From the NCBI GenBank assembly GCA_030649345.1, contig JAUSKK010000036.1, forward strand, positions 1-32,000: a stretch of 32,000 nt of DNA. The letters run 5' to 3'. A program made the position numbers and the translations under genes. The notes below the pieces were generated by a model. That model had not been told where the DNA came from, did not search any database, and saw only the letters and a list, made by a program, of their open reading frames with translations. Positions 10,427-29,774 of this stretch are shown here, piece by piece (the stretch's first letter is position 1; every line of letters begins with the position of its first letter). This DNA comes from Candidatus Iainarchaeum sp. (GTDB taxonomy: Archaea > Iainarchaeota > Iainarchaeia > Iainarchaeales > 0-14-0-20-34-12).

Positions 10427-10786
10427 ATGAGTTCATTTGAAGTACCTAAAGAATTAATGGCCAAGCAATTGGAAGTTTTGGAAAAAATAGCTAAAGGCGG
10501 CGGAAAATTCAAAGCCGGAGTGAATGAAGTAACAAAAGCCATTGAACGCGAAAAAGCCAAACTTGTTTTCATTGCTTTAGACGTTGACCCCAAAGAAATT
10601 GTAATGCATTTGCCTTTGATTTGCAAAGAAAAAAAGATTCCGTATACTTTTGTGGAAAGCAAAAAAGAATTGGGTGAAAAAGCAGGAATTAAAGTTCCCA
10701 CCAGTGCTTTAGCTGTCATGGATGAAGGAAAAGAAAAAAAAGAAGTAACAGATTTAGCTAAAAAATTAGCTGAATTGCAGGTTTAA
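10427..10786 (+). CDS. rpl7ae: 50S ribosomal protein L7Ae (K-turn binding protein)
   Basis: GVNEVTKAIEREKAKLVFIALDVDPKEIVMHLPLICKEKKIPY is the L7Ae signature. A GGAGGT SD lies upstream. Confidence 0.9.
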   Translation: MSSFEVPKELMAKQLEVLEKIAKGGGKFKAGVNEVTKAIEREKAKLVFIALDVDPKEIVMHLPLICKEKKIPYTFVESKKELGEKAGIKVPTSALAVMDEGKEKKEVTDLAKKLAELQV

Positions 10787-10801
10787 AGGAAGTGAAATCG
10801 T

Positions 10802-11011
10802 ATGGATGAAAAAGGAACACCAGCTGAAGTGGTTGAAATCATTAAACGCACAGGCGTCCAAGGCGAAATCACTCAAGTTATGTTAAAAATTTTGGACGGT
10901 CCAGAAAAAGGACGTGTAAAGCGAAGAAATGTAAAAGGCTTAATTCAAAAAGGCGATGTCGTAATTCTGTTAAGCACAGAAAGAGAAGCAGCTGAAATTA
11001 AAGCCAGATAA
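10802..11011 (+). CDS. rps28e: 30S ribosomal protein S28e
   Basis: [28 protein letters not shown]...[10 protein letters not shown]. Confidence 0.9.
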
Positions 11012-11029
11012 AAAATTGAGGGATAAATT

Positions 11030-11296
11030 ATGAATAATTGTTCATTTTGTGGAACTAACATTCAACAAGGTACTGGAATTATTTTTGTAAAAAGAACCGG
11101 AAAACGTTTTGATTTCTGTTCACGAAAATGTGAAAAAAATTTAATGAAATTAAATCGAAATCCAAGAAATTTCAAATGGACCCAAGAATACTGGAAAGAA
11201 AAAGGATTCCAGCAAGAAAAAGCAGGAAAAACTGAAACAGCTAAAAAAGAAGAAACTACAGAAAAGAAAGCTGTGAAACGAAAAAGAAAAAAGTAA
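11030..11296 (+). CDS. rpl24e: 50S ribosomal protein L24e
   Basis: CSFCGTNIQQGTGIIFVKRTGKRFDFCSRKCEKN zinc-ribbon N-terminus and a lysine-rich tail. Confidence 0.9.
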   Translation: MNNCSFCGTNIQQGTGIIFVKRTGKRFDFCSRKCEKNLMKLNRNPRNFKWTQEYWKEKGFQQEKAGKTETAKKEETTEKKAVKRKRKK

Positions 11297-11421
11297 ACAA
11301 TTCTGTGGTGCTGCAAGCACAATAAAACAAAATGTTTTATGTGCATCAAAATCAGCAGATTTTGATTGCACCACGTTCGACCAACCGGAACCCCGGTTGA
11401 AACGAAAGCGAAAAAAGTAAA
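11274..11421 (+). repeat. 24-nt direct repeat of the L24e 3' end (11274-11297 / 11398-11421, 22/24) bracketing a 100-nt multi-hairpin insert
   Basis: Read directly: TGAAACGAAAAAGAAAAAAGTAAA versus TGAAACGAAAGCGAAAAAAGTAAA. The insert stems are given in the findings. Confidence 0.8.
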
Positions 11422-11483
11422 ATAATTTAGTGGCACTGGCGCAGCAATGCAACAGTGTCACATACTATCAATCCGGTGATATT

Positions 11484-11948
11484 TTGGAACGAACGTTAAT
11501 TATTGTAAAACCAGATGCAGTTCAACGAGGCTTGGTCGGAGAAATTGTAAAAAGATTTGAAGACAAAGGCTTGAAAATTGTAGCCATGAAATTAGAAGTA
11601 TTGGCTGAAGAAAAACTCAAAGAACATTATGCGCATCATTCCACAAAACCATTTTTTCCTGAATTGGTCAACTTTATGAAAAGTACACCTAGTGTATTAA
11701 TGGTCTTGGAAGGCACAGAATGTGTTCGAGTGATTCGACAAATGTTGGGTGCCACCAATGGAAGAGATGCAACTTCTGGAACTTTACGCGGAGATTATTC
11801 CATTAGCAATCAAAATAATTTAGTTCATGCCAGTGAAAGTTTGGAAGCAGCAGAAAAAGAAATTGCTCGCTTTTTCAAAAAAGAAGAAGTCATGAATTAC
11901 ACCAAAACTTTAACTGAATGGTTTTATGCCAGTAAAGAAAAAAATTAA
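11484..11948 (+). CDS. ndk: Nucleoside diphosphate kinase, probable TTG start
   Basis: (M)ERTLIIVKPDAVQRGLVGEIVKRFE matches the canonical NDK N-terminus, and NLVHASES contains the active-site His. The track ORF (11430) adds 18 aa that overlap a strong hairpin. GGTGAT lies at 11475-11480. Confidence 0.85.
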   Translation: MERTLIIVKPDAVQRGLVGEIVKRFEDKGLKIVAMKLEVLAEEKLKEHYAHHSTKPFFPELVNFMKSTPSVLMVLEGTECVRVIRQMLGATNGRDATSGTLRGDYSISNQNNLVHASESLEAAEKEIARFFKKEEVMNYTKTLTEWFYASKEKN

Positions 11949-11957
11949 GGGATTGTT

Positions 11958-12401
11958 TTGAACACTGCAGATTTGAAAGTATTTATTCGAAAAGTAAACG
12001 AACAAGCCATCTTGCCGCAGTATGCTCATGAAAGCGATGCCGGCATGGATTTGTATGCTTGTGAAGAAACAGTTATTTTACCCGGGCAATGGAAAATGGT
12101 CAGTACTGGAATTTCCATTGAAATGCCGCATGGCCTAGAAGCTCAAGTGCGGCCTAGATCTGGATTGGCAGCCAAGCATGGTTTAAGTGTATTGAATACT
12201 CCGGGAACCATTGATCCAGATTATCGCGGAGAAATTAAAGTAATATTAATTAATTTTGGAAGCCAAGAATACAAAGTTGAATTTGGACACAAAATTGCTC
12301 AAATGGTTTTCAACAAAATTGAAAAACCCAAAATTGAAACAGTAGACCAATTAAGCGAAACCCAGCGCGGAGAAAAAGGCTTTGGTTCTACTGGAAAATA
12401 A
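11958..12401 (+). CDS. dut: dUTP diphosphatase (trimeric Dut type), TTG start
   Basis: SDAGMDLYA, RPRSGLAAKHGL, GTIDPDYRGEI and a C-terminal RGEKGFGSTG motif. Confidence 0.85.
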   Translation: MNTADLKVFIRKVNEQAILPQYAHESDAGMDLYACEETVILPGQWKMVSTGISIEMPHGLEAQVRPRSGLAAKHGLSVLNTPGTIDPDYRGEIKVILINFGSQEYKVEFGHKIAQMVFNKIEKPKIETVDQLSETQRGEKGFGSTGK

Positions 12402-12506
12402 TATTGATTGCATACGGGTCAAGGCGCTGAGCCAACCAAAAGAAATATCCATTCAAAGTGCAGGATTACAGAATCCTAAAACTTTGAATAACTGTGTGTG
12501 AAAATT

Positions 12507-14252
12507 ATGATTCGACAACCGATTATTGTAGTCATGGGCCATATTGACCATGGAAAAACCAAATTATTGGACAGAATTCGCGGAACCACTATAGCTGAAA
12601 GAGAAGCTGGAGCGATTACGCAACATATTGGTGCTACTGAATTACCTGAAAATAAAATTCAAGCTATTTCTGGAAACTTATTAAAGCAATTTGGATTTCA
12701 ATTAGAAATTCCAGGCTTATTGTTTATTGATACGCCTGGGCATGATGCATTCACGAATTTAAGAAGACGCGGTGGAAGCATTGCCGATTTATCTATTTTA
12801 GTTGTAGACTGCATGCAAGGAATTCAACCGCAAACTTTGGAAGCCATTCAAATTTTGAAAACATTCAAAGTACCGTTTGTGGTAGCGTTTAATAAAATTG
12901 ACAAATTACAAAACTGGCAAAGCAAGACAGGTTCGTTTTTAGAAAATGAAAAAATTCAAACTACCCATGCCCAAGAATTATTGGATAAAAAAATCTATGA
13001 ATTGGTTGGAAGATTGTTTGAATTAGGATTTGAAGCAGAACGCTTTGATCGAATTCAAGATTTCCGAAAACAAATAGCTATTGTTCCTTTGTCGGCTGTG
13101 GTGGGAGAAGGAATTCCTGAATTGTTAATGATGCTGTCTGGTTTAAGTCAAAAGTTTTTGAAAAACAAATTGGAAATCGGAGAACAAGAAAAATGCAAAG
13201 GCACTGTCTTGGAAGTCAAAGAAGACAAAGGCCTAGGAACAACATTGGATGTAATTTTATACGAAGGATCTTTACGCGTAGGAGATATCATTGCTGTTGG
13301 AACCAAACAAGGAGTCACTGAAACCAAAATTCGTACTTTACTCAAACCCAAACCATTATCGGAAATACGGGATGAAAAAAATGTATTCAAATCAGTAGAA
13401 TCTGTAAGCGCGGCTTGCGGAGTAAAAATTTCCGCTCCAAACTTAGAAAATGTTTTAGCGGGTTCTCCAGTATTGGATGCCAGTGTGGAATCACGGCAAC
13501 AAATATTGGATGAAATTAAATCCATTAAAATTTCAACCGAAGATATTGGCTTAGTCATCAAAGCAGATACTTTAGGATCCTTGGAAGCATTGATTGGATT
13601 AATGAAAAACAATCAAATTCCAGTACGATCCGCAGATGTAGGAATGGTTACCAAAAAAGATGTCATGGAAGCTTTGGCTTCAAAAGAAAAAGATGTTTAC
13701 CATGGCTGTATTGTTGCATTCAATGTAGAAATTGATAAAACTGCAGAAGACGAAGCCAAAAAAAGAGAGATTCAATTATTTTCAGGAAAAGTAGTGTACA
13801 CCATTATTGATGAATATTCAAATTGGGTAAAAACTCAAAAAGATCAAATGAAAAAAAACAAGTCTACTTTCTTGATAAGTCCAGCAAAAATTGAAGTATT
13901 GCGAGGCTTTGTTTTTAGAAGATCCGATCCAGCCGTGGTTGGCGTAAAAGTATTGATTGGAAAAATTAAATCCAAAACAACATTGATTAATGAAAATACA
14001 ATGGTACGATTGCAGGGATTGCAGGAAGAAAAAAAGGCTGTTGAATCTGCAGAAAAAGGAAAAGAACTGGCAGCATCCTTAGAGAATGCAGTCATTGGCC
14101 GAAACTTGTTTGAAGGAGATATATTGTATACGTATATTCCAGAAAGCCAATTTGAAGAAATTCCAAAGTATTTGGAGCTAAATTCTGAAGAATTGGCCTT
14201 ACTGGAGGAAATAAAAAATGTTCAAATCAAACATAAAGAGAACGGAGGATAA
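12507..14252 (+). CDS. infB: Translation initiation factor aIF5B (IF-2 homologue)
   Basis: GHIDHGKTKLLD, DTPGH and NKID GTPase motifs; about 580 aa. GTG 12498 is an alternative start. Confidence 0.9.
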   Translation: MIRQPIIVVMGHIDHGKTKLLDRIRGTTIAEREAGAITQHIGATELPENKIQAISGNLLKQFGFQLEIPGLLFIDTPGHDAFTNLRRRGGSIADLSILVVDCMQGIQPQTLEAIQILKTFKVPFVVAFNKIDKLQNWQSKTGSFLENEKIQTTHAQELLDKKIYELVGRLFELGFEAERFDRIQDFRKQIAIVPLSAVVGEGIPELLMMLSGLSQKFLKNKLEIGEQEKCKGTVLEVKEDKGLGTTLDVILYEGSLRVGDIIAVGTKQGVTETKIRTLLKPKPLSEIRDEKNVFKSVESVSAACGVKISAPNLENVLAGSPVLDASVESRQQILDEIKSIKISTEDIGLVIKADTLGSLEALIGLMKNNQIPVRSADVGMVTKKDVMEALASKEKDVYHGCIVAFNVEIDKTAEDEAKKREIQLFSGKVVYTIIDEYSNWVKTQKDQMKKNKSTFLISPAKIEVLRGFVFRRSDPAVVGVKVLIGKIKSKTTLINENTMVRLQGLQEEKKAVESAEKGKELAASLENAVIGRNLFEGDILYTYIPESQFEEIPKYLELNSEELALLEEIKNVQIKHKENGG

Positions 14253-14255
14253 ATA

Positions 14256-14316
14256 AATGGTTCCAAAATTCGAAAGAATTTTGAAACTTTAAAAAACACG
14301 GAGGTTTTTTAATGGC
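14256..14316 (+). repeat. 61-nt module, copy A (84% identical to 24835-24895): inverted repeat + AAACTTTAAAAAA + G-rich box + TTTTTTAATG
   Basis: A by-eye alignment gives 51/61 identities. Inverted repeat CAAAATTC (14264-14271) / GAATTTTG (14276-14283). AATGG occurs at both ends (14256 and 14311). Confidence 0.8.
14288..14296 (+). promoter_or_regulatory. TATA-like TTTAAAAAA exactly 24 nt upstream of the S6e ATG
   Basis: The same 9-mer lies at the same 24-nt distance from the ATG at 17303 (spt4) and 24867 (dnaJ). Promoter function is not proven, because GGAGG between the box and the ATG could instead be an SD. Confidence 0.4.
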
Positions 14317-14734
14317 CGCGCCAAAATTAGATCAAAAAGTTGGAATGAATTTAGTAATCTCAGACCCAAAGACTGGAAACAGTTACAAAAAAGATACAGA
14401 ACAGCCTGTTTTTTTAAATAAAAAAGTTGGTGAAACTGTAGACTTAAGCACAGTTGGATTGCAAGGCTATAAAGCTTTGATTACCGGCGGAAGTGACAAA
14501 GATGGTTTTCCATTAAAGCCTACTTTGCCTGGAAGTGCAAGAAAAAAAGTATTGATTTCCCGAGGAGTTGGTTTACGACAAACCATTAAAGGCAGCCGGA
14601 GAAGAATTCGAGTCCGAGGAAATCTTATTGCAGATGACGTACGACAAGTGAATTTAAAAATCACAGAATATGGAACACCTACATTGGAAACCATTTTCCC
14701 AAAAGCACCCAAAGCAGAAGACCAAGCAAAATAG
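14312..14734 (+). CDS. rps6e: 30S ribosomal protein S6e
   Basis: NLVISDPKTGNSYKK...GGSDKDGFPLKP...RRRIRVRGN are S6e motifs. An internal ATG at 14345 is an alternative start. Confidence 0.9.
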   Translation: MAAPKLDQKVGMNLVISDPKTGNSYKKDTEQPVFLNKKVGETVDLSTVGLQGYKALITGGSDKDGFPLKPTLPGSARKKVLISRGVGLRQTIKGSRRRIRVRGNLIADDVRQVNLKITEYGTPTLETIFPKAPKAEDQAK

Positions 14735-14747
14735 TTTTTGCGGGTCA

Positions 14748-14767
14748 CAGAAAACCAAGGTTTTCTG
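14748..14767 (+). terminator. 8-bp hairpin after S6e
   Basis: CAGAAAAC-caag-GTTTTCTG. The left arm repeats 11/12 nt of the S6e 3' end (14715-14726). Confidence 0.35.
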
Positions 14768-14813
14768 AAGAAACAAAAAAAGAATAATAAAATAAATGGA
14801 TGTGAACTAACTC

Positions 14814-16037
14814 ATGGCTGGAAAAAAAGTAAAAACAGACAGCAGTGCACAATGCGTGCAAGCTGAAGTGAATATTGGTTTAGCCGGCCATGTAGATGCA
14901 GGAAAAACAACTTTAACTCAAGCATTGAGTGGAAAATGGACAGACACGCATAGTGAAGAATTAAAGCGCGGAATTTCAATACGATTGGGATATGCGGATA
15001 TTGGAATTTATAAATGCAGTAAATGCAAAGAATTTAATTATTCGAATACCAGTGAATGCCCACAGTGTAAATCTCCAGGTATTTTAGACCGCAAAGTTAG
15101 TTTTGTGGATGCGCCAGGGCATGAAACATTAATGACTACTATGTTAAGTGGAGCTGCACTTATGCAAGGCGCTTTGTTGGTAATTGCCGCCAATGAAACT
15201 TGCCCGCAAGCACAAACCATTGAACACTTGAATGCATTAATTATCAGCGGCATCGAGCAAGTCATTGTAGTGCAAAGCAAAGTAGATTTGGTCACCGAAG
15301 AACGAGCATTGGAAAGTCATAAAGAAATTAAAGAATTTTTGAAAGACACCCAATACAAAAACGCGCCCATTGTACCCATTGCAGCACATTTCAAAATCAA
15401 TATTGATATATTATTGGAAGAAATTCAAAAAAGTATTTCTTCGCCGAAATTTGATTCTACAAAACCATTGAAAATGTTTTGTGCACGATCTTTTGATATT
15501 AATAAACCAGGAACGCTTCCTTCAGAATTACATGGAAGTGTTTTAGGCGGAACCATTATTCAAGGAACCATCAAAAAAGGAGACACCATTGAATTAACTC
15601 CTTGGCTGGATGGAAAACAAATTCAAACCAAAGTTATTGAAATTCGAACCAGCGATGGAGTCTTAGAAGAAGCCAAGCCAGGCGGTTTAATTGCAATAGA
15701 AACTTTATTGGATCCAAGTTTAGCACAAAACGATCAGCTTAAAGGCCAAAACATTGGAGCTGTAGGAATATTCTCTGAACCTACCACAGTCTTGAAAATA
15801 GAAATGCATTTTTTGGATCGAGTTGTTGTCAGCAGTGCTAAACGAGTAGTGCAAGGAGATGACTTGGTTTTAACAGTTGGAACTGCAACTTTGTTGGGAA
15901 TTGTTTCCAGCGTAAAAGGAAATACTGTAGTTGTTGCTTTGAAGAAACCAGCCGTAGCTGAAAAAGAACAAAAACTTGCAGTCAGCAAACGAGACCAAAT
16001 GAAATGGAGATTAATTGCTTACGCAATCAATAAATAA
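14814..16037 (+). CDS. eif2g: Translation initiation factor aIF2 gamma subunit
   Basis: GHVDAGKTTL, the zinc-ribbon insert CSKCKE...CPQCKS, DAPGH and SKVD; 407 aa. Confidence 0.9.
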   Translation: MAGKKVKTDSSAQCVQAEVNIGLAGHVDAGKTTLTQALSGKWTDTHSEELKRGISIRLGYADIGIYKCSKCKEFNYSNTSECPQCKSPGILDRKVSFVDAPGHETLMTTMLSGAALMQGALLVIAANETCPQAQTIEHLNALIISGIEQVIVVQSKVDLVTEERALESHKEIKEFLKDTQYKNAPIVPIAAHFKINIDILLEEIQKSISSPKFDSTKPLKMFCARSFDINKPGTLPSELHGSVLGGTIIQGTIKKGDTIELTPWLDGKQIQTKVIEIRTSDGVLEEAKPGGLIAIETLLDPSLAQNDQLKGQNIGAVGIFSEPTTVLKIEMHFLDRVVVSSAKRVVQGDDLVLTVGTATLLGIVSSVKGNTVVVALKKPAVAEKEQKLAVSKRDQMKWRLIAYAINK

Positions 16038-16130
16038 TCAAAACTATCGAGGCAAAGCCGAAGATAGTTTAAAGTACCGCCGGCTTTCCGGCGAAACGGA
16101 GATTAATTGCTTACGCAATCAATAAATAAT
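16001..16130 (+). repeat. 38-nt direct repeat of the aIF2-gamma 3' end (16001-16038 / 16093-16130, 37/38) bracketing a 54-nt two-hairpin insert
   Basis: GAAA[T/C]GGAGATTAATTGCTTACGCAATCAATAAATAAT occurs twice with a 92-nt period. Confidence 0.85.
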
Positions 16131-16610
16131 ATGCAATCAATCAATAAAAAAATGAATATTAAAAATGAAAAAAAATTAAACAGTGCTGCTGAAGTGCAAC
16201 GAAAGCAGCACGTGCTACCAACCCGCACGCGGGTTGCAATTGACACAAATATGTTGTTAAGTGTCAGTCAATTAAAATTGGATATTTTTCAAGAAGTAGT
16301 CAACGAATTTGGAGAACAAAATTCTGAAATTGCAATCCCAGATAGGGTATTAAATGAATTAAAAAAATTGGCAGAAATTGAAAAAAACAAAGATGCCATT
16401 TTAGCTCAAGCCTGGTTAAACCAGAAAAAATTTAAAGTTTTGAAAGCCCAAAAGGCCGATAATGCAGATAAAGCCCTTTTAGAGCTTGCAAAACAAGGGT
16501 TTATCATAGCTACCAATGATAAAGTCTTACGAAAAAGTATAAAAAACGTTAATGGCAAGAGTATTTATATTAGAAAACGAAAAGTACTAGACTTTTCAGA
16601 AACATTCTAA
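16131..16610 (+). CDS. PIN-domain protein (conserved archaeal Fcf1/Utp24-like neighbour of aIF2-gamma and rpoE')
   Basis: VAIDTNMLL...IIATNDKVLRK are acidic PIN motifs. The track start, TTG 16107, lies inside the duplicated aIF2-gamma end. ATG 16131 or 16152 is more plausible. Confidence 0.75.
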   Translation: MQSINKKMNIKNEKKLNSAAEVQRKQHVLPTRTRVAIDTNMLLSVSQLKLDIFQEVVNEFGEQNSEIAIPDRVLNELKKLAEIEKNKDAILAQAWLNQKKFKVLKAQKADNADKALLELAKQGFIIATNDKVLRKSIKNVNGKSIYIRKRKVLDFSETF

Positions 16611-17262: not shown

Positions 17263-17330
17263 AATTTTAAATGAATTTAAAATTTAAAAAAAATTTTAAA
17301 ACTTTAAAAAACCGGGGGTTTTTTAAATGA
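17263..17330 (+). repeat. 10-nt direct repeat TTTTAAATGA (17265-17274 / 17321-17330) around a 46-nt AT-rich promoter-like insert at the spt4 start
   Basis: Exact repeat with a 56-nt period. Inverted repeat AATTTTAAA (17263-17271) / TTTAAAATT (17276-17284). AAACTTTAAAAAA at 17299-17311. Confidence 0.5.
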
Positions 17331-19271: not shown

Positions 19272-20254
19272 TTGCACTTGGAATTGAATCAACGGCTCAT
19301 ACATTCGGAATTGGAATTGTGGATTCTAAAGGAAAAGTCTTGGCCAATGAAAAAGATACCTTAAAGCCAAAAGATAAAGGATTGATTCCCAGAGAATTGG
19401 CAGAGCATCATTTTCAAGTCAGTGAACGAATACTAAGACAAGCTTTAGATAAAGCTGAAGTTAAATTAAGTGAAATTGATTTAATTGGTTTTTCTCAAGG
19501 CCCAGGAATTGGAAATGCTTTACGCATTGGAGCTACTGTAGGACGTGCGCTTTCTTTGAAATTGAACAAGCCTTTGGCTCCAGTCAATCATTGCATTGCC
19601 CATATTGAAATTGGAAAAAAGAAAACCAAAGCAAAAGATCCTGTGGTTGTGTATGCCAGCGGAGCGAATACACAAATTATTACTTTAAGCAATGAAAGAT
19701 ACCGAATTTTTGGAGAAACATTAGATATTGGAATTGGAAACATGATGGATTCATTTGGCCGAGAGTTAGGTTTAGGATTTCCAGCTGGTCCAATTTTAGA
19801 TCAATGGTATTTTTTAGGAAAAAAATATATTCCTTTACCGTATACAGTCAAAGGAAGTGATTTGGTTTTTTCTGGACTGCAAACTGCAGCAGAACGAATG
19901 ATTGGAAAAGAAACCCAAGAAGATTTAGCTTACAGTTTATTACATACTGGTTTTGCTATGTTAACTGAAGTTACTGAAAGAGTATTGGCACATACTGGAA
20001 AAAAAGAAGTCTTATTGGTGGGAGGCGTAGCTGCCAGCAAAGCATTGAATCAAATGATGGACACCATGTGCGAAGAAAGAAATGCAAAAAAATTTGTCCC
20101 AGAAGTACAATTTTGCACAGACAACGGAGCCATGATTGCTTGGACTACTCATTTGGTTTACAAAAGCCAAGGAAAAATTTCCATAAAAGAATCGGAAATC
20201 AAGCCCAAGCAACGTACGGACGATGTTGTTCCGAAATGGATTCAAAAAAAATAA
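19268..20254 (+). CDS. kae1: tRNA N6-adenosine threonylcarbamoyltransferase Kae1
   Basis: ALGIESTAHTFGIGIV, HCIAHIE and the GGVAASKAL...FCTDNGAMIA signature. An ATGA overlap links it to sua5. Confidence 0.9.
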   Translation: MIALGIESTAHTFGIGIVDSKGKVLANEKDTLKPKDKGLIPRELAEHHFQVSERILRQALDKAEVKLSEIDLIGFSQGPGIGNALRIGATVGRALSLKLNKPLAPVNHCIAHIEIGKKKTKAKDPVVVYASGANTQIITLSNERYRIFGETLDIGIGNMMDSFGRELGLGFPAGPILDQWYFLGKKYIPLPYTVKGSDLVFSGLQTAAERMIGKETQEDLAYSLLHTGFAMLTEVTERVLAHTGKKEVLLVGGVAASKALNQMMDTMCEERNAKKFVPEVQFCTDNGAMIAWTTHLVYKSQGKISIKESEIKPKQRTDDVVPKWIQKK

Positions 20255-20264
20255 ACTCGCCAAA

Positions 20265-20924
20265 TTATGCAGAATCAAAAGAATAAAAAGCACTATCTTT
20301 ATTTGTAAATTCATCTAAATCTGAAATTAATTCTGCACTATTTTTGTAATTACTGGCATTAATCAACAAGTGAAAGCCATGCTTTTTTTCTTTCATTTTG
20401 AAAAGGTTTTCCAAGTAAACTATATTGTCCTTTTTATCAGAAGATACTGCAACCTTAAAGGAACAATTTAGACTTGTAGCTAGAAAAGAATATTCAATTG
20501 CACGAATAATAAAATGTGGCCGCATATATGTACCGTTTTCAACACTGGCTTGAATGAATTCATTCGGATTTTTTAAAAGCAAACAATAAGTGTGATTATT
20601 CATTTTAGCAATCAACACAATATTAATCCGTTTTAGTTCAGTGCTTATACCTTGCGGGTTTGCAAAAACAAGTTTGTCTAAATATACTGTAATAATGGGT
20701 GCTATTTGCTGAATGGATTTTCGAGTTACAAAAAGATAAAAAAACACGAATGAAAATAATACCAACAAAGGCAAAACTGCAAGAAACGGTACTACAGTAG
20801 AAGTCTTAGCACTTGGAATAAAAGCCAAGGCAATGTAAAAAACTATTGCAATAAAACTAAAGACAGTAAAAACATCGCGTACAAAAAAACTTGGATAATA
20901 GATCTTGAGATCTTGTGAGTGCAT
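20265..20924 (-). CDS. Membrane protein: two N-terminal TM helices plus a ~140-aa soluble domain, function unknown
   Basis: Hydrophobic segments VFTVFSFIAIVFYIALAFI and VVPFLAVLPLLVLFSFVFFYLFV. It is the last gene of the minus-strand operon. Confidence 0.6.
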   Translation of the reverse strand: MHSQDLKIYYPSFFVRDVFTVFSFIAIVFYIALAFIPSAKTSTVVPFLAVLPLLVLFSFVFFYLFVTRKSIQQIAPIITVYLDKLVFANPQGISTELKRINIVLIAKMNNHTYCLLLKNPNEFIQASVENGTYMRPHFIIRAIEYSFLATSLNCSFKVAVSSDKKDNIVYLENLFKMKEKKHGFHLLINASNYKNSAELISDLDEFTNKDSAFYSFDSA

Positions 20925-20944
20925 ACAGATCTAAATACTTAGAA

Positions 20945-21472
20945 TTATTTTTCTGAACGAAAGCTAGCAGTATATTGATAGAGTTTTAAAAAAACTGCCA
21001 AAATTACAATAAAGATTCCAACATTCAAAGCATACGAGTAGGGCTGAACGATTCCATAATTTTCCCAGTTAATAAAAGTTAATTCTGGATCCAAATAAGC
21101 TGCAATCGCGTAAGCTATAAAAAAAGCAAACACAATTTCAATTATAATCAAAGCCAAGACTCGGGGATCGTTTTTTGCATTTTTTAATTTTTGCTGCACA
21201 GCATCTTTCAATGTTTTGCCGGCCAAAACTTGGATATCATAGGCTTGGGTTTGTTTTTTTTTCAAAACAAAATACACGGCAATAAATGTGAACAAAGAAA
21301 GGCCGGCTAAAAATAAATATTCTGGCGAAAAATTAAATGAAACTGTCCGCTCAAAGACATTGATTTGAATAATTTGAATTAAAGAATAAATAAATGAAAC
21401 CAGCAAAGCAAACTCCATGAGCACAATAGCAATAACTTTTTTGTTTGCTTGAATGGTTTCAATTGCTTGCAT
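20945..21472 (-). CDS. Four-TM membrane protein, function unknown
   Basis: Four hydrophobic segments with a central amphipathic, charged loop. It lies 32 nt downstream of the HTH gene. Confidence 0.6.
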   Translation of the reverse strand: MQAIETIQANKKVIAIVLMEFALLVSFIYSLIQIIQINVFERTVSFNFSPEYLFLAGLSLFTFIAVYFVLKKKQTQAYDIQVLAGKTLKDAVQQKLKNAKNDPRVLALIIIEIVFAFFIAYAIAAYLDPELTFINWENYGIVQPYSYALNVGIFIVILAVFLKLYQYTASFRSEK

Positions 21473-21504
21473 TGTTTAAACTTAGGAAACCGGAATATAA
21501 AAAA

Positions 21505-21936
21505 CTAGTCTTCGATTTCCAAGCCAAATTTTTGATCCAATTCTCGTGCAGTTTCTTCCATTCTTCTAAAAATTAAGTTCACTTCTTCTTGAATTTCTTT
21601 AATCGTACGAGACATACTTCGCGAACGCGCTAAATAAAATCTTCCTTCTCGAACAATTAAGCCAGAAAGCAAAAGCTTATTCAAATGATTAATCACAGCA
21701 CCGCGAGACATATTTACTTTATCCGCAATTTCTGGACAAGTCAAAAGCTTGCCTTGCTCAGTAGCTTGAACAAGTACTCGAAAAATAGCAAAAGCCAACT
21801 TGTCTTTGTCAATGGGTTCAAATAAACCAAAACTTTGACAAATCCAACCCAGCTCTTGTTCTACATCATGCTGAAAAGGCTGTTCTATACGTTTAATAAC
21901 TATTTTAAACGAAGTACGGCGCACAGTCATATACAA
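21505..21936 (-). CDS. Winged-helix transcriptional regulator (ArsR/MarR-like fold), divergent from grpE
   Basis: LTCPEIADKVNMSRGAVINHLNKLLLSGLIVREGRFYLA is a clear HTH plus wing. It has an acidic C-terminal helix. Confidence 0.65.
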   Translation of the reverse strand: MYMTVRRTSFKIVIKRIEQPFQHDVEQELGWICQSFGLFEPIDKDKLAFAIFRVLVQATEQGKLLTCPEIADKVNMSRGAVINHLNKLLLSGLIVREGRFYLARSRSMSRTIKEIQEEVNLIFRRMEETARELDQKFGLEIED

Positions 21937-21968
21937 GTACTCTTAATGGAATAAATTTAAAAACATTT

Positions 21969-22002
21969 TGATTAAACAGTTTGATAAATGATTAAAGAGT
22001 TT
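21969..22002. promoter_or_regulatory. Candidate operator: 14-nt direct repeat TGATTAAA[C/G]AGTTT spaced 20 nt, with a third TGATAAA half-site between
   Basis: 21969-21982 and 21989-22002 are identical at 13/14 positions. They lie in the 86-nt divergent spacer between the wHTH gene and grpE. Confidence 0.45.
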
Positions 22003-22022
22003 AGACAAATAAGGTAGTTTTT

Positions 22023-22589
22023 ATGACTTTTGAAACAAAAAGCAATGAAAAAGAAGGAATGGAAAGCCCAACACCTGAAAATAACCGTCCAAGCGAAAAT
22101 AATGAAGAATTCAATGCATTAATGACTAAAAAACAGGCTGAGATGCAGGATTATATCAATGATTTAAAGCGGTTACAGGCCGATTTTGAGAACTATCGAA
22201 AGAGGGTAGAACGCGAGCGAACAGAATATGTAAAGCATGCCAATTTTGGATTTTTGCGAGAAATATTGGCTTTATTGGATTCAGTTCAATCAGCAGTTCA
22301 TAAACTGGAAAATGAAAAAGAATTCAATCAAGGAAAAGCCGTGCATGGTTTGCAGTTATTGGAAAAACAATTTAAAGAATTTTTAAAAAAACACGGAGTG
22401 CATGAAATCCAAGCACAAAATTGTAAATGTGATCCTGCAGTACATGAAGTTGTATTGCAAGGAACAGATAATTCAAAACCAGATGAAATGATTTTGGAAG
22501 AATTGCAAAAAGGATATCTATTGCATGACAAAGTTTTACGGTCAGCAAAAGTAAAAGTCAACAAATTAGATAGTAAAATTGAAAAATAA
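22023..22589 (+). CDS. grpE: Nucleotide exchange factor GrpE
   Basis: LKRLQADFENYRKRVERE is the hallmark motif; C-terminal beta domain GYLLHDKVLRSAKVKV. Confidence 0.9.
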   Translation: MTFETKSNEKEGMESPTPENNRPSENNEEFNALMTKKQAEMQDYINDLKRLQADFENYRKRVERERTEYVKHANFGFLREILALLDSVQSAVHKLENEKEFNQGKAVHGLQLLEKQFKEFLKKHGVHEIQAQNCKCDPAVHEVVLQGTDNSKPDEMILEELQKGYLLHDKVLRSAKVKVNKLDSKIEK

Positions 22590-22636
22590 TTATAAAATTT
22601 GAAAAATAAAAGTATGATTTTTGAAGGTGGTATGAA

Positions 22637-24523
22637 ATGAGTAAAGTAATTGGAATCGATTTAGGAACCAGTAATTCAGCAGCTGCAGTCTTGGAAGCAG
22701 GAAAACCAAAAATTATTCCAAGCGCAGAAGGAACTTCTTTATACGGAAAAGCATTTCCAAGTGTTGTGGCATTCACAAAAGATGACCAAGTTTTGGTGGG
22801 TGAACCGGCACGCAGACAAGCTGTCAGTAATCCAGATAAAACAATTATGGCAGCCAAGCGAAAAATGGGAACTACTTTCAAATACAAGATTGGCTCGAAA
22901 GAATTTACGCCTCAACAAATTAGTGCATTTATTTTACAGAAAATTAAAAAAGACGCAGAAGAATTTTTAGGCGAAAAAGTAGAAAAAGCTGTAATCACTG
23001 TGCCAGCTTATTTTGATGACAATCAAAGACAAGCAACCAAAGATGCAGGAGAAATTGCAGGCTTGGAAGTTATTCGAATTATTAATGAACCCACAGCTGC
23101 TGCTTTAGCCTATGGCTTAGATAAAAGCAATCAAGACATGAAAATTTTAGTATTCGATTTCGGCGGCGGAACATTGGATGTAACTGTAATGGAATTAGGC
23201 CATGGAGTCTTTGAAGTCAAATCAACCAGCGGAGACACTCAATTGGGCGGCACAGACATGGATAAAATTTTAGTGGATTATTTGGTGGCAGAATTCAAAA
23301 AAGAACAAGCTGTTGATTTAAGCAAAGACAGTGTAGCTATGCAGAGATTACGAGAAGCTGCAGAAAAAGCCAAAATTGAATTAAGTACAGTTTTGGATAC
23401 ACAAATTAATTTACCGTACATTACAGCTACTCCGGAAGGCCCGAAACATTTGGCCCTGAGTTTAACAAGATCAAAATTAGAACAATTGGTCGAGCCCTTA
23501 ATTCATAGATGCGAAAAACCAGTCCAGCAAGCTTTGGCGGATGCCAAAGTATCCCCGGGAGATGTAGCTAAAATTATTTTAGTCGGCGGACCAACCCGAA
23601 TGCCTGCAGTACAAAAGTTTGTGGAAAAAATTACAGGAGCCAAACCAGAACGAGGCATTGACCCAATGGAATGTGTAGCTATGGGTGCAGCCATTCAAGC
23701 CGGAGTTTTAGCTGGAGAAGTTAAAGATGTTTTATTATTGGACGTAACACCCCTAAGTTTAGGAATTGAAACCTTGGGTGGAGTGTTTACTCATTTAATT
23801 GAACGCAATACAACCATTCCAACCAAAAAAACTCAAATATTTAGCACAGCTGCAGACAACCAAAATGCAGTAGATATTCATATCCTGCAAGGAGAAAGAC
23901 CTATGGCAGTAGACAACAAAAGTTTGGGCAGATTTATTTTAGATGGAATTCCTCCAGCACCTCGCGGTGTTCCACAAGTTGAAGTCATGTACGATATTGA
24001 TGCCAACGGAATTTTGGATGTTAAAGCCAAAGATTTAGGCACAGGCAAAGAAAAAAGCATCAAAATTGTTTCTCCGCAAAAATTGGATAAAGAAGAAATT
24101 GAGCGAATGAAGCAGGAAGCGGAAAAGTTTGCAGAAGCGGATCAAAAGAAAAAAGAAGAGATTGAAACTTTGAATATGGCAGACAACACAGTTTATGGGA
24201 CTGAAAAGGTGTTGAAAGAATTGAGCGGGAAAATTTCTGCAGAACAAGAAACAGAAATTAAAGAAAAAAATGAAACATTAAGAAAATTAGTAAACGAGCC
24301 AACCAAAGATGTTGCAAAAATTAAAACAGCTTTAGATGACTTGAATGCATTCGTGCAAAAAATCAGTACAGAAATGTATCAAAAAGCCGGAGAACAATAC
24401 CAGCAACAAAATCAAGGAGAACAAGGAAATCCCGGACAAGAAGAAGAACACAAGCACAAAAAGAAAAACAAAGACGGAAAAGTGGTTGACGCGGAGTTTA
24501 AGGAAGACGAAAGCAAACAATAG
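22637..24523 (+). CDS. dnaK: Chaperone DnaK (Hsp70)
   Basis: [23 protein letters not shown] and [10 protein letters not shown]; 628 aa. Confidence 0.95.
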
Positions 24524-24659
24524 TGCTGAACGCAGTGAAGCACTACGACCTACCAACCGCGCGATTAAAACGCAGCGTTTTAATGCGCATTTAAACAAAA
24601 GTTTAAATCGCGTCCGCGGTTGACGCGGAGTTTAAGGAAGACGAGAGCAAACAATAGTG
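24484..24659 (+). repeat. 42-nt direct repeat of the dnaK 3' end (24484-24525 / 24618-24659, 41/42) bracketing a 92-nt GC-rich multi-hairpin insert
   Basis: GGTTGACGCGGAGTTTAAGGAAGACGA[A/G]AGCAAACAATAGTG occurs twice with a 134-nt period. Confidence 0.9.
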
Positions 24660-24688
24660 GAAAAGATAGAACAAATGGAGTTGGTCAT

Positions 24689-24817
24689 ATGAATCCTGAA
24701 GTGAAAGCAAAAAAAGTTGAACCTGTTTTGAAGAATCAACCGAAAGCAGAAGATGTAGTTATTCTTGGCCAAGCAAAAAAATCAAGAGATTACTTGAATA
24801 ACTTTATGGCAGCATAA
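24689..24817 (+). CDS. Hypothetical 42-aa protein between dnaK and dnaJ
   Basis: ATG preceded by GGAG 9 nt upstream. Sequence MNPEVKAKKVEPVLKNQPKAEDVVILGQAKKSRDYLNNFMAA, with no recognisable motif. Confidence 0.3.
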   Translation: MNPEVKAKKVEPVLKNQPKAEDVVILGQAKKSRDYLNNFMAA

Positions 24818-24834
24818 TTAATCAGGTAGAAATC

Positions 24835-24895
24835 AATGGTTCCAAAATTCTTTTGAATTTTGAAACTTTAAAAAATAAAGGAATTTTTTAATGGC
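24835..24895 (+). repeat. 61-nt module, copy B (see 14256-14316) directly upstream of and including the dnaJ start
   Basis: Inverted repeat CAAAATTC (24843-24850) / GAATTTTG (24855-24862). TTTAAAAAA at 24867-24875. AATGG at 24835 and 24890. Confidence 0.8.
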
Positions 24896-26015
24896 TGAAA
24901 AAGATTATTATGAAGTTTTAGGAGTTTCAAGGAATGCATCGCATGAAGAAATTAAAGCAGCATTCAAGAAACTCGCAAAACAATTTCATCCAGACTTAAA
25001 CAAAGACCATAAAGCTGAAGACAAATTTAAAGAAATTAATCAAGCGTATTCTGTTTTAGGCAATCCTGAAAAAAAACAAAAATACGATCAGTATGGTTCA
25101 AGTGCATTTGAAGGACAAGGATTCCAAGGCTTTCAAGGAGCAGACTTTGATTTCGGAGACTTTGGATTCGAAGACTTATTTGGAAGCATATTTGGACAAC
25201 AATTTAGAAACACAAATTCTAGAAGAACTCCAGCAGGCCCCAGAAAGGGAGCGGATTTACAATACAGTTTAGAAATTGAATTCGAAGAAGCAGTCAATGG
25301 AGTCACCAAAGACATTGAATTCGAACACATGGAACAATGTACAACCTGTAAAGGCATCGGCGGATCTGGAACAACCAAATGTTCTTCATGCAATGGAAAA
25401 GGAGTGGTTACCAGACAACAAAGAACAGCTTTTGGAATATTTCAGAGCAGTACAACTTGTTCCAAGTGCCGCGGCCAAGGAGAATCAGTAAAAGATTCAT
25501 GCAAGCAATGCAATGGAACAGGTCATATTGAAAAACTAAAAAATGTAGAAGTCAAAATTCCAGCAGGAATTGACAATGGTTATACTTTACGATTGCAAGG
25601 ATTGGGAAATGCTGGAACTCAAGGCGGAAACTCCGGAGACTTATATGTTTCTATTTTTGTAAAAGCCAGCAAAATATTCAAACGCGACCAAAACGATGTA
25701 TTCATTGAATTACCCATTAGTTTTACTGAAGCTGCTCTAGGATGCGAAATTGAAGTTCCAACATTAAAAGGAACTGCAGAATTAAAGATACCGCAAGGAA
25801 CACAAACTGGAACAATTTTCCGAATGAAAGGACAAGGCATGAAACATTTAAACAAAAACGAACACGGAGACGAATACGTAAAAGTCAATATTGTGGTTCC
25901 AGAAAAACTAAGCACCAAACAGAAAAAAAGATTGGAAGAATTCAAAAAAGAAGAAGAAAATGTACGCATTCAAAAAGGATTCTTTCACAAAATAAAGGAT
26001 AAGTTTGTAAGCTAA
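24891..26015 (+). CDS. dnaJ: Co-chaperone DnaJ (type I)
   Basis: [15 protein letters not shown], a G/F region and four CxxCxGxG zinc motifs. Confidence 0.95.
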
Positions 26016-26080
26016 TTTTTAGCAAATCTTACTTGTAAGAAAAGCTTATTAACCTGTTTTGTTCTAATTAGTAGATTGAT

Positions 26081-26335
26081 ATGAAAGTAATTGTGGAAAC
26101 CACCAAGATGTCCACCAAAGGACAAGTTATTATTCCGAAAGATGCACGCACATTTATGGAACTTGAAAAAAACACGGTTTTTTCAGTTTTAGCTTTGGAT
26201 CAAAACACGCTTATTTTAAAAAAATTAGATAAAGAAAAATTGCTAAGAGAGTTTGAAAATATTCGAGCACGCGTCAAGCATAAACTCTCTGAAAAGGGAG
26301 TGGATGCTATTGTTCACAAAGCACGCAAAGGTTAG
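26081..26335 (+). CDS. AbrB/SpoVT-family antitoxin
   Basis: MSTKGQVIIPKDAR is the swapped-hairpin AbrB motif. The protein is small and lies directly upstream of the PIN gene, overlapping it. Confidence 0.75.
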   Translation: MKVIVETTKMSTKGQVIIPKDARTFMELEKNTVFSVLALDQNTLILKKLDKEKLLREFENIRARVKHKLSEKGVDAIVHKARKG

Positions 26336-26750
26336 AGTTGTTCTAGACACCAACATTGTTGTTTCGGCTTTGATCGAAAAACGCGGTTATCCAGCGGAAA
26401 TTTTTAGAAAACTTATTTCTGAAGAAATTGAATGTTTTACCAGCCAAGAAATACTGGACGAAATTGAAGATGTATTTAAAAGAACAGAAATTGTCAGCCG
26501 AACTTTACAGGCCGATCGGGAATCCATATTAACAAATTTCAAGATTTATGCGCAATGGATTTCAATCAAAACCAAAGTAAAAACAGTACTGGAAGATTCA
26601 GATGATGATAAATTCATTGAATGCGCTTTGGACGCCAAAGCAGATTTCATTGTCAGCGGAGATCGACATTTGCTTAAACTAAAGGAATTCAAAGGAATAA
26701 AAATTATTAAAGCTAAGGAATTTATAGACACAATAAGCGGCTGTTTGTAA
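26304..26750 (+). CDS. PIN-domain toxin (VapC-like)
   Basis: VVLDTNIVVSAL...DDDKFIECALDAKADFIVSGDRHLL. The track ORF starts at 26253; ATG 26304 is preceded by GGGAG and gives a 32-nt overlap with the antitoxin. Confidence 0.75.
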   Translation: MLLFTKHAKVRVVLDTNIVVSALIEKRGYPAEIFRKLISEEIECFTSQEILDEIEDVFKRTEIVSRTLQADRESILTNFKIYAQWISIKTKVKTVLEDSDDDKFIECALDAKADFIVSGDRHLLKLKEFKGIKIIKAKEFIDTISGCL

Positions 26751-29291: not shown

Positions 29292-29774
29292 ATGGGATTG
29301 AAAAAAATTGGTTTACTTTTAGTTGCAGTAGTAGCTATTGTTTATTTTGTAAATCCATCCATGATTGGATCAAATAATCCATTACAGGAATTGGATCAAA
29401 AATACTTAAAGGATTCTGTATTACCGACTACAGAAAATATACAAGCCTATGAGCAAGCTTTGAAAAACTTTTCTGGATCCACAGAACAAGTGCAAGTGCG
29501 ATTGACTGGTGTTGAATTGGTTAAAGCTTTGCAATTGGTTAATCAAAAAACAGTATTAATTGATTTGCAAAGTTCAGAATGTAGAACTCAAGTTGTAAAT
29601 GCACAGCAAGCTATAGATACAGCTATTGGAAAAGCCGTGAACTTAAGTTCAGAAACTTCGCGTTTGTTGGCTAAAGAAACAAATGAATTTGTTTCAGAAC
29701 TAAAAGCTACAACTTTAGGAATTCAAGGCAGATTGGAAACCCAAAAACAAAGCTTGGAAAATTACTGCGAATAA
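29292..29774 (+). CDS. N-terminally membrane-anchored hypothetical protein
   Basis: One TM segment (IGLLLVAVVAIVYFV) followed by a helical, Q/E-rich domain. Confidence 0.55.
   Translation: MGLKKIGLLLVAVVAIVYFVNPSMIGSNNPLQELDQKYLKDSVLPTTENIQAYEQALKNFSGSTEQVQVRLTGVELVKALQLVNQKTVLIDLQSSECRTQVVNAQQAIDTAIGKAVNLSSETSRLLAKETNEFVSELKATTLGIQGRLETQKQSLENYCE

Follow-up and report, generated by a model that had tools for sequence, protein, structure and literature searches.

A hairpin-repeat insertion flanked by two copies of the dnaK gene end in a Candidatus Iainarchaeum genome

The dnaK locus of Candidatus Iainarchaeum sp. (assembly GCA_030649345.1, contig JAUSKK010000036.1) raises the question of how the end of a gene can come to be present twice, around a GC-rich and hairpin-forming insert, while the gene itself stays whole. 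We analyzed positions 1 to 32,000 of the contig, a 32-kb stretch of DNA referred to here as the window. With moderate confidence, we propose that the insert, termed E3, belongs to a lineage-specific family of hairpin repeats and was inserted just past the dnaK stop codon, and that the same event re-copied about 32-42 nt of the target, most likely by annealing-dependent copy-choice or microhomology-mediated insertion.

The duplicated dnaK end

The features at the locus are the following, dnaK being taken from the list of open reading frames (ORFs).

22637-24523, + strand: dnaK, 628 aa; Pfam HSP70, E = 1e-227
24484-24525, + strand: repeat copy 1, the functional dnaK end (12 codons, TAG and TG)
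24526-24617, + strand: insert E3, 92 nt; hairpin A, linker CGACCT, and hairpin B with a nested twin AT-rich module
24618-24659, + strand: repeat copy 2, non-coding, GAG variant, running on into the original dnaK-dnaJ spacer
24689-26015, + strand: context kept by copy 2; a 42-aa ORF (24689-24817), a promoter-like module (24838-24893) and dnaJ (24891-26015)

The two copies, 24484-24525 and 24618-24659, are identical at 41 of 42 positions with a start-to-start spacing of 134 nt. The last 12 codons of dnaK and its TAG stop codon (24521-24523) fall within copy 1, and the sole mismatch between the copies, A24511 versus G24645 (GAA versus GAG), is synonymous. Direct repeats of at least 22 nt at short range were absent from all 30 dinucleotide-preserving shuffles, compared with two strict cases and one more diverged case in the window. 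The original prediction, made from the sequence without database searches, had given these repeat coordinates, this identity and this mismatch, and all of them hold on recheck. It had also read copy 1 as the DnaK C terminus plus TAG, with which the ORF at 22637-24523 agrees, and had described a structured GC-rich insertion with a long flanking duplication that spares the DnaK C terminus and keeps the upstream context of the next gene; the ORF that ends in copy 1 is indeed complete, and copy 2 is continuous with the dnaK-dnaJ spacer.

The encoded DnaK is 100% identical to a DnaK held at NCBI as 'MAG: Candidatus Diapherotrites archaeon' (MAG, metagenome-assembled genome), and its next-best relative shares 74-76% identity. 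The VVDAEF motif in copy 1 is the usual DnaK C terminus across 32 relatives. In all 32 related DPANN loci, the dnaK end (..VVDAEF..*) is single and followed by an ordinary spacer, with a duplicated end in none, and the duplicated arrangement is therefore derived.

Within and around the insert, hairpin A (24521-24545) has the stem TAGTGCT/AGCACTA and a tandem-GA loop, while stem B pairs CAACCGCG with CGCGGTTG (24554-24622). Hairpin B as a whole, ACCAACCGCG...CGCGGTTG, spans 24551-24622 and encloses two AT-rich hairpins (24564-24584 and 24589-24608) that make up the twin module at 24562-24612. Folding and an inverted-repeat search reproduced the full hairpin set first described for this insert, namely stem A, stem B and the two AT-rich hairpins. 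The minimum free energy (MFE) of 24515-24630 is -38.8 kcal/mol (z = -3.75), and none of 200 shuffles gave an equal or better fold.

A hairpin-repeat family and a recurrent layout

The same succession of gene end, hairpin insert and gene end occurs at three loci within the 32 kb: dnaK, L24e and aIF2-gamma. The features at the latter two loci, together with a fourth family member, are as follows.

11274-11310, + strand: L24e gene end, copy 1; strict repeat 11274-11297, TAA at 11294-11296, weaker similarity to ~11310; Pfam Ribosomal_L24e
11298-11397, + strand: insert E1, 100 nt, downstream of L24e; fold z = -6.25
11398-11434, + strand: L24e gene end, copy 2; two changes relative to copy 1, both synonymous if in frame
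16001-16038, + strand: aIF2-gamma gene end, copy 1 (...KWRLIAYAINK and TAA)
16039-16092, + strand: insert E2, 54 nt, downstream of aIF2-gamma; fold z = -4.61
16093-16130, + strand: aIF2-gamma gene end, copy 2; 33 nt (16098-16130) exactly as in copy 1, lone difference C16097
16180-16236, + strand: E4, fourth family member, without a flanking duplication; abuts or overlaps the 5' end of the PIN_9 gene

The inserts at 11298-11397 and 16039-16092 had been put forward as counterparts of the dnaK insert, and they are real and of the same type. The strict L24e repeat (11274-11297 versus 11398-11421) is identical at 22 of 24 positions and is followed by weaker similarity to about 14 nt past the stop codon; the aIF2-gamma repeat (16001-16038 versus 16093-16130) is identical at 37 of 38. 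The outer stem of E1, GTGGTGC/GCACCAC, encloses twin AT-rich hairpins (11322-11367), and its 3' part comprises GTTCG, hairpin B (ACCAACCGG-AACC-CCGGTTG) and then AAAC. E2 consists of hairpin A' (AAACTATC-GA-GGC-AAA-GCC-GA-A-GATAGTTT), followed by AAAGT and ACC, and hairpin B' (CGCCGG-CTTT-CCGGCG), whereas E4 consists of hairpin A (GTGCTGCT...AGCAGCAC), GTGCT and hairpin B (ACCAACCCG-CACG-CGGGTTG).

E1, E3 and E4 can be aligned over their cores, which have in common GTGCTG...GCAC-ACG-NNC-K-ACCAACC-(stem)-loop-(stem)-GGTTG. The family plan is a hairpin A with a tandem-GA apex, a 5-6-nt linker and (C/G)KAC-CAACC-stem-loop-stem-GGTTG(AAAC). E2 follows the same two-hairpin plan, with the B module ACC-GCCGG-CTTT-CCGGC-GAAAC; as a whole it could not be aligned by MAFFT, and the likeness of its B module to that of E1 (ACC-stem-loop-stem-GAAAC) was judged by eye only. 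By that likeness, we class E2 as a diverged relative of the family, which gives 3-4 copies in the window. All four have the same orientation as the genes that flank them. Taken together, the copies read as a family, here called the E family, of small GC-rich repeats that are non-coding, built from two hairpins and lineage-specific.

Searches support this restricted distribution. The regular expression CAACC-SS..SS-GGTTG gave three matches in the window and none in 1.24 Mb of relatives. A covariance model built from the three cores (E1, E3 and E4), the kind of search that the original prediction had called for, recovered only the known copies in the window (E4 at 63.9 bits, E3 at 39.8 bits with E = 3e-9, and E1 at 35.9 and 21.6 bits) and, across 80 related loci, gave one match at E = 0.03 that is not credible; the result is a multi-copy family in the window with no credible copy in those loci. 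Pattern scans gave only chance matches, three in metagenomes, on GC-rich bacterial contigs, and nine in viral contigs. When each insert was compared by BLAST with the sequences examined, no second copy was found of E2 or of the two inserts from other genomes described below, and no local inverted template was found for any insert, which makes it less likely that they arose by fold-back or by local template switching.

The stems are strongly stable. The predicted stems of the four window elements amount to 107 bp with a single G-U pair, so that essentially all are Watson-Crick, and fold z scores across the inserts range from -3.75 to -6.25. Stem sequences vary between copies yet remain fully complementary, and among the three stem B sequences there is one compensated change from C-G to G-C. 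The flanking repeat of E1 is at least 8% diverged, and 35 pairs of the element are intact. Although drawn from few copies, these patterns suggest that hairpin pairing has been maintained. The twin AT-rich modules of E1 (11322-11367) and E3 (24562-24612) are homologous, with the consensus ATWAAAAC..GTTTTWAT - GYGCA - second hairpin, and they lie in the loop of stem A in E1 and of stem B in E3. The module therefore behaves as a separately nested unit, as if it were a small insertion unit of its own that targets the loops of GC-rich hairpins.

Two further observations concern the surroundings of the family. A GC-rich patch in the dUTPase/aIF5B spacer (12410-12438, GGGTCAAGGCGCTGAGCCAACCAAAAG) contains GCCAACC and was missed by the family model; it may be a decayed E-like remnant. 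E4 lies directly upstream of, or within, the first codons of the PIN_9 ORF (16107-16610), in which the Pfam domain begins at residue 43, so that with a start at ATG 16152 or GTG 16212 it would form an N-terminal extension or a 5' untranslated region, respectively.

The layout is also found outside the window. A search of 1.24 Mb around dnaK genes in 80 other genomes revealed two further cases, in the DPANN MAGs L007 and L026, which come from other studies. In L007, a 31-nt segment made up of the final 18 nt of the S15 gene, its TGA and the next 10 nt recurs on the far side of a 70-nt insert; in L026, a 44-nt segment with TAA recurs in the same way across a 38-nt insert that contains the hairpin GCAACG/CGTTGC. 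Recurrence at three loci in the window and in two other DPANN MAGs refutes the suggestion, also made originally, that the dnaK arrangement is a private local scar. In another DPANN MAG (L038, ~11873-11990), two GC-rich hairpins, TTGGCAC-CTAA-GTGCCAA and GATGCC-AAAGG-GGCATC, follow directly after the dnaK stop codon without a duplication; pairs of hairpins at this site may have a wider distribution than duplicated gene ends have. In a further locus (L005, 3762-4201), the coding sequence holds an unrelated tandem repeat of 240 nt (94-98% identity) with the dockerin-like peptide GDVTNDGAVNQLDVDF.

The junctions between elements and targets share a distinctive feature. Stem B ends in GGTTG in E1, E3 and E4, GAAAC directly follows it in both E1 and E2, and the 5' ends read cAGTGCTGC in E4 and (T)AGTGCTG in E3. 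The L24e target begins with TGAAAC, a 6-nt overlap with the element end ...GGTTGAAAC; the dnaK target begins with GGTTGA, likewise a 6-nt overlap, which is native dnaK sequence and codes for the conserved VVD; and the aIF2-gamma target begins with GAAA, a 4-nt overlap. At its other end, the dnaK target closes with AGTG, overlapping the 5' end of the element by 4-5 nt. Such overlaps are present at every junction that can be judged. As both GGTTGA and AGTG also match the ends of the family, the unambiguously duplicated dnaK target is shorter than 42 nt, and it comes to about 32-33 nt for dnaK and aIF2-gamma alike. The flanking repeats as such measure 42, 38 and 24-35 nt in the window, 44 nt in L026 and 31 nt in L007, a strict range of 24-44 nt.

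The overlaps also bear on the differences between copies. The aIF2-gamma mismatch (TGG in copy 1, CGG in copy 2, at C16097) probably does not reflect a mutation but the final base of the element end GAAAC, and copy 1 keeps the tryptophan of the WRLIGYG motif that is conserved in solved aIF2-gamma structures. Four of the five coding differences between copies are synonymous, a proportion that is not significant (P ~0.03-0.09 under simple models) and from which we draw no conclusion; the one that is non-synonymous is probably element-derived.

How the gene ends may have been re-copied

The overlaps between element ends and targets, the variable length of the duplication and the absence of terminal inverted repeats favor an annealing-dependent process over a fixed, staggered transposase cut. 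In such a process, a growing DNA end would depart from the chromosome just beyond a stop codon and would anneal over 4-5 nt to a second E copy at its 5' end, this copy being present either as DNA or as a transcript. That copy would be read through to its 3' end (...GGTTGAAAC), and the new strand would then re-anneal through 4-6 nt to the nearest matching site, some 30-40 nt behind the point of departure. The outcome would be a duplication of variable length that leaves the upstream ORF whole in copy 1 and the upstream context of the next gene whole in copy 2, and, with spacers of 5-100 nt, only such gene-sparing events would survive. The same process would have acted after L24e and aIF2-gamma here, and after S15 and another gene in the two other DPANN genomes. 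Candidates of this type are copy-choice template switching, microhomology-mediated joining and target-primed synthesis on an RNA copy, which could not be separated on the basis of 32 kb.

The duplications end close to stop codons, with the right edge 1-2 nt past the stop in three of the five events (dnaK, aIF2-gamma and L026), 10 nt past it in L007, and 1 or 14 nt past it in L24e, depending on the extent of the repeat. In a compact genome, most insertions would destroy a gene, and selection for gene-sparing insertions may thus explain this position. At aIF2-gamma and L24e, an AT-rich, TATA-like sequence lies over the stop codon (AATAAATAAT and GTAAAATAATTT, respectively), and an insertion without a duplication would presumably cut it off from the next gene.

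Several observations weigh against annealing-dependent insertion of an E element as a full account. The clustering at stop codons (3-4 of the five cases) is tighter than selection alone obviously predicts. E4 has no duplication, and duplication is hence not obligatory. Gene ends have also been duplicated where there is no hairpin: the grpE end (last codons and TAA) is tandemly duplicated at 22574-22611 with a period of ~20 and 3 nt between the copies (TAAAATTGAAAAATAA/TAAAATTTGAAAAATAA), and a third partial aIF2-gamma end (16133-16152, GCAATCAATCAATAAAAAAT) follows directly after copy 2, both of them hairpin-free, so that the aIF2-gamma/PIN spacer holds two E elements and 2.5 copies of the gene end. 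The grpE case may reflect the same re-copying of a gene end without an insert, or slippage in AT-rich sequence. These hairpin-free duplicates speak for gene ends being prone to re-copying in general and could equally allow a two-step history, with duplication first and insertion later. The inserts of L007 and L026 are unrelated in sequence to the E family; a shared process, and not a single element, may link these loci to the E loci. The family has just four known members, all from the 32 kb, and the element ends and junction overlaps are defined by 3-4 sequences. Finally, neither a donor copy nor a transcript nor an enzyme has come to light from these 32 kb.

The alternative that survives best, and which we nevertheless consider unlikely, is a non-autonomous transposon resembling a miniature inverted-repeat transposable element (MITE), moved by a transposase or a Cas1/casposase-like integrase encoded elsewhere, with cuts staggered by 30-45 bp and gap repair. 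A multi-copy family with direct repeats of the target flanking it at three loci is what such an element would leave, and long or variable duplications occur in a few insertion sequence (IS) groups (IS1634/IS1549 and IS1202), while Cas1-type integration duplicates a repeat-sized target. However, the E elements lack terminal inverted repeats, beginning with AGTGCTG and ending with CGGTTGAAAC, and the inverted repeats present are only those of the internal hairpins. The duplications vary in length (24-44 nt, strict), overlaps between element ends and target are not expected of cut-and-paste transposition, and one copy, E4, has no duplication at all. Nor does the 32-kb window hold an enzyme of this kind: transposase, integrase, reverse transcriptase and Cas domains were absent when 40 window ORFs were compared with Pfam and six with NCBIfam.

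A more far-reaching version of the annealing reading, which is doubtful in our estimation, is that E represents an unknown kind of archaeal mobile element that moves via an RNA or single-strand intermediate and short end-annealing, in a target-primed or copy-choice manner, with an insertion point tied by the mechanism itself to the stop codons or 3' ends of genes that are highly expressed, and with gene-tail duplications of 30-40 nt as its signature across DPANN. Closely related, and improbable, is a retro-insertion like that of a short interspersed nuclear element (SINE), in which E RNA would be reverse-transcribed at a target nick, with the nicked strand base-paired to the RNA 3' end GGUUGAAAC, before a staggered second nick; retro-insertion of an RNA was also among the original suggestions. 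The long, variable duplications (24-44 nt) and the junction overlaps, 4-6 nt on the 3' side and 4-5 nt on the 5' side, are in keeping with it; the expected combination of a variable target duplication and microhomology between element 3' end and target was found for E1 (TGAAAC), E2 (GAAA) and E3 (GGTTGA). All copies are sense and stand behind highly expressed genes (L24e, aIF2-gamma and DnaK, with S15 in L007), and E is predicted to fold as a compact, stable hairpin RNA. Against this, the window encodes no reverse transcriptase, the inserts have no poly-A or other 3' tail, and the near-perfect Watson-Crick stems fit palindromes maintained at the DNA level at least as well; to our knowledge, there is no SINE-like class of retroposon in archaea.

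A history in two steps, with slippage producing a tandem duplication of the gene end and a hairpin element later entering the harmless junction, is as improbable as retro-insertion. The insert-free duplication at grpE (22574-22611, period 20) and the partial third aIF2-gamma end (16133-16152) are in its favor. However, in all five cases the insert reaches exactly from one copy to the other, with no spacer left over, the hairpin-free duplicates are shorter (16-20 nt), AT-rich and of low complexity, and the overlaps with the element ends would go unexplained. Very improbable is the notion that the repeats are the attL and attR sites of decayed integrative elements of viruses or plasmids, with the 92 nt as a deletion remnant: integrases acting at the 3' ends of tRNA and housekeeping genes do leave direct repeats of 20-60 nt that rebuild the gene end, but here three different targets within 32 kb carry related inserts of 50-100 nt, there is no integrase fragment or coding remnant between the repeats, the attP site would need to have held the sequence of each target beforehand, and E4 has no repeats.

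An independent assembly bears on whether the duplications are real. Logan contigs of run SRR13727527, found by exact-product look-ups, tile parts of the window at 100% identity:

9459-11401 (L096): L24e copy 1, the whole of E1 and the start of copy 2
11373-13894 (L097): the end of E1, L24e copy 2 and NDK
13879-16035 (L094): reaches aIF2-gamma copy 1
19891-23026 (L095): grpE and the start of dnaK
24618-26680 (L093): dnaK copy 2, unbroken into dnaJ

L096 and L097 jointly cover L24e copy 1, E1, copy 2 and NDK. L094 ends at 16035, the position of the last 31-mer that the two aIF2-gamma copies, with their exact 33-nt repeat, do not share; a true 33-nt repeat predicts just such a stop, as it forces branching in the Logan graph, for which we take k to be 31. 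The junction from dnaK copy 1 into E3 was not recovered in any Logan contig, and exact look-ups of partial products for the dnaK 3' end, PIN and rpoE found no match. Two contig ends offer leads only. L096 and L097 are separated by a gap of one k-mer, the 31-mer 11372-11402 (CACGTTCGACCAACCGGAACCCCGGTTGAAA) in the B module of E1, which would imply a second genomic context for it in the sample, that is, another near-identical E copy. L093 begins at the first base of dnaK copy 2 (24618) and continues unbroken through 24659, for which the simplest cause would be a second left-hand context of the GAG-type repeat; an insert-free allele, in which ...AAAGT is joined to GGTTGACG...GAGAGC...TAGTGGAAAAG, would give this pattern. 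It is scarcely credible that misassembly, or the joining of strain variants into a chimera, produced the layout: the genome is a short-read MAG, and the Logan contigs do break at or near the repeats in a region of complex graph, but L096 and L097 are 100% identical to the window across L24e copy 1, E1, copy 2 and NDK, L094 ends exactly as a true 33-nt repeat predicts, the copies carry point differences, and MAGs from unrelated studies show the same layout.

Relation to known repeats and significance

Several known classes can be set aside as identities for these inserts. The original suggestion of a MITE-like element holds as regards a multi-copy family of small elements, and fails as regards structure, because terminal inverted repeats and a short target duplication of fixed length are both absent. 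In 24000-25200, the only inverted repeats are internal hairpins, the element ends AGTGCTG... and ...CGGTTG(AAAC) are not complementary, and the flanking repeats of 24-44 nt (none for E4) compare with ~2-10 bp of fixed length for MITEs. E elements resemble MITEs in being small, non-coding, multi-copy, structured and intergenic, and differ in having no terminal inverted repeats, short fixed duplication, C/D boxes or known parent IS; the MITE-like C/D sRNA elements of Pyrobaculum are an archaeal precedent (PMC6009581). The alternative suggestion of an excisable or circular RNA did not survive, as there is no bulge-helix-bulge with a 4-bp helix between two 3-nt bulges, no helix joining the ends of the insert and no ribozyme or Rfam match; MFE and centroid folds give only local hairpins with the 5' and 3' boundaries unpaired, in contrast to the intron-containing tRNA gene at 3217-3338 of the same window. 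That gene is a class II, Leu-like tRNA gene with a long variable arm and a 37-nt intron in the anticodon loop, which ARAGORN missed by default and found in intron mode under the label Ile(tat).

A diversity-generating retroelement likewise has a direct repeat of a gene 3' end with a GC-rich hairpin after the first copy. However, no reverse transcriptase is encoded among the window ORFs, the repeats are 24-44 nt versus ~100-150 nt, and the targets, DnaK, L24e and aIF2-gamma, are not variable binding proteins. At the differing positions, A, A, A and T of the gene copies are matched downstream by G, G, C and C, so the differences are not at downstream adenines. A CRISPR array or off-target spacer is excluded by flanking repeats that differ from locus to locus, by inserts of 54-100 nt (spacers measure about 30-45 nt) that are related to one another, and by the absence of an array, a Cas domain and any Rfam match to a CRISPR direct repeat at E <= 10. 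A site-specific integrative element does not fit inserts of 54-100 nt that lack coding capacity and are related across three targets. Rfam gave no gathering-level match in the whole window, and at E <= 10 the three loci gave only biologically irrelevant matches (at most 21 bits, E >= 0.2); the tRNA/tmRNA scan found nothing at the three insert loci. Hairpin A of E3 has a kink-loop-like CUGA...GUGAAG, but no C box (RUGAUGA) or D box at the right spacing and, by eye, no ACA box, and a hammerhead-like CUGA...GAAA has an incomplete core and no Rfam match. Nor do the hairpins read as intrinsic terminators, as no T-run follows the GC-rich hairpins and a terminator scan called none of them on the sense strand, its only call within an element being a minus-strand site in hairpin A of E4 (16185-16200).

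In form and location, E is closest to two other groups of repeats. The first is the bacterial repetitive extragenic palindromes (REPs) and bacterial interspersed mosaic elements (BIMEs), which are likewise short GC-rich palindromes with a tetranucleotide beside the stem, extragenic and situated at or over stop codons in co-directional clusters, and which are often composite multi-hairpin units and lineage-specific. REP termini often provide the stop codon (PMC3733652). REPs are palindromes of 20-40 nt flanked by a conserved GTAG or CGTC; in E, the GC-rich, palindromic stem B of 7-8 bp is preceded by CTAC (E3 and E4), CGAC (E1) or GTAC (E2), neither GTAG nor CGTC in REP polarity, so that the tetranucleotide differs and, in our own reading, its polarity to the hairpin is opposite to that of GTAG-REPs. 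REPs are bacterial and associated with RAYT genes, whereas the host of E is archaeal and the window holds no RAYT gene; moreover, target duplications are not reported for REPs (the word 'duplication' is absent from PMC3733652), while three of the four E copies have duplications of 24-42 nt.

The second group comprises mitochondrial hairpin elements, namely yeast GC clusters, Allomyces double-hairpin elements and the repetitive hairpin elements (RHEs) of sponges. These resemble E as GC-rich units of 1-3 hairpins in AT-rich, compact genomes. Yeast GC clusters have only very short flanking duplications, and a gene end duplicated over 30-40 nt, as in E, has not been described for any of these mitochondrial elements. 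Like E, they may be adjacent or nested, with conserved stems and variable loops, are confined to close lineages and have a suspected role in RNA processing; unlike E, the Allomyces elements are without flanking duplications (PMC2800124). It is the long and variable target duplication that sets E apart from both groups.

As to mechanism, the closest parallels are template switching of the types known as fork stalling and template switching (FoSTeS) and microhomology-mediated break-induced replication (MMBIR), and target-primed reverse transcription of SINEs. Each shares with E overlaps of a few nucleotides, a variable duplication behind the insertion point and an insert copied from elsewhere. 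They differ in being known as sporadic mutation or as eukaryotic retroposition, not as the recurrent spread of a prokaryotic repeat family, and in that E has no local inverted template. A template-switch origin of hairpins has reportedly been proposed in a 2023 bioRxiv preprint. In the literature searched, whose coverage was incomplete and which is weak evidence in this respect, no description was found of gene-tail duplications of 30-40 nt around hairpin repeats.

The window as a whole is a housekeeping region of a very compact genome (35% G+C; most spacers 5-100 nt). It encodes L7Ae, an S28e-like protein, L24e, NDK, dUTPase, aIF5B, S6e and aIF2-gamma, as well as PIN, RpoE, S24e, Sua5, Kae1, GrpE-DnaK-DnaJ, class-I aminoacyl-tRNA synthetases, S15 and S3Ae. 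ORFs of 680, 219, 175 and 160 aa (6515-8557, 20265-21472 and 29292-29774) had no Pfam or NCBIfam match. A second repeat family resembles a promoter or 5' module; it is found at 14259-14314, at 24838-24893 and, more weakly, at 17263-17330, leads into S6e, dnaJ and a 65-aa ORF, and would be expected to have zero matches by chance. The module consists of the palindrome GGTTCCAAAATTC-N4-GAATTTTGAAAC, TTTAAAAAAC, a GGAGG-like loop and GTTTTTTAATG, which ends in the start codon. It may be the operator for an ArsR/MarR-type regulator encoded beside grpE (21505-21936).

A role for the E hairpins may be sought in their shared design. Hairpin A of E2, E3 and E4 and both small hairpins of L007 consist of a stem, a tandem GA/GA or GAA/GAA internal loop, a mini-helix of 2-3 bp and a triloop. 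A search for this stem-GA-minihelix-triloop-GA-stem motif gave 18 matches versus eight in shuffles, so the motif is not widespread or generally enriched. Hairpin A of E3 (GCUGA-ACGCAGU-GAAGC) presumably resembles an archaeal C'/D' kink-loop, judging by the rules for kink-turns, but the elements lack C/D or H/ACA architecture. The copies lie in sense between highly expressed genes that are co-directional, and it is plausible, by analogy with REPs, that they help to protect or process the 3' ends of operon mRNAs, that they bind the L7Ae encoded at 10427-10786, or that they serve as protein-binding DNA palindromes. If the hairpins do act as 3'-end, processing or protein-binding signals, they would bear on the punctuation of operon mRNAs.

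We regard the E elements as a form of small, mobile palindromic repeat whose insertion signature is unusual and whose mechanism and function we infer, and not as an established new class of mobile element. The finding has practical consequences, as repeated gene ends fragment short-read assemblies and can mislead gene callers, and any genome can be searched for the combination of long, variable duplications and junction overlaps. Should this signature stem from template switching or from target-primed synthesis, it would be a record of transposase-independent spreading in archaea. DPANN archaea have tiny, gene-dense genomes that are thought to be poor in mobile elements, and the E family occurs at about one copy per 8-10 kb here. 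It would be a new example of selfish or semi-domesticated DNA that persists under extreme compaction, with the tail of the gene duplicated rather than interrupted.

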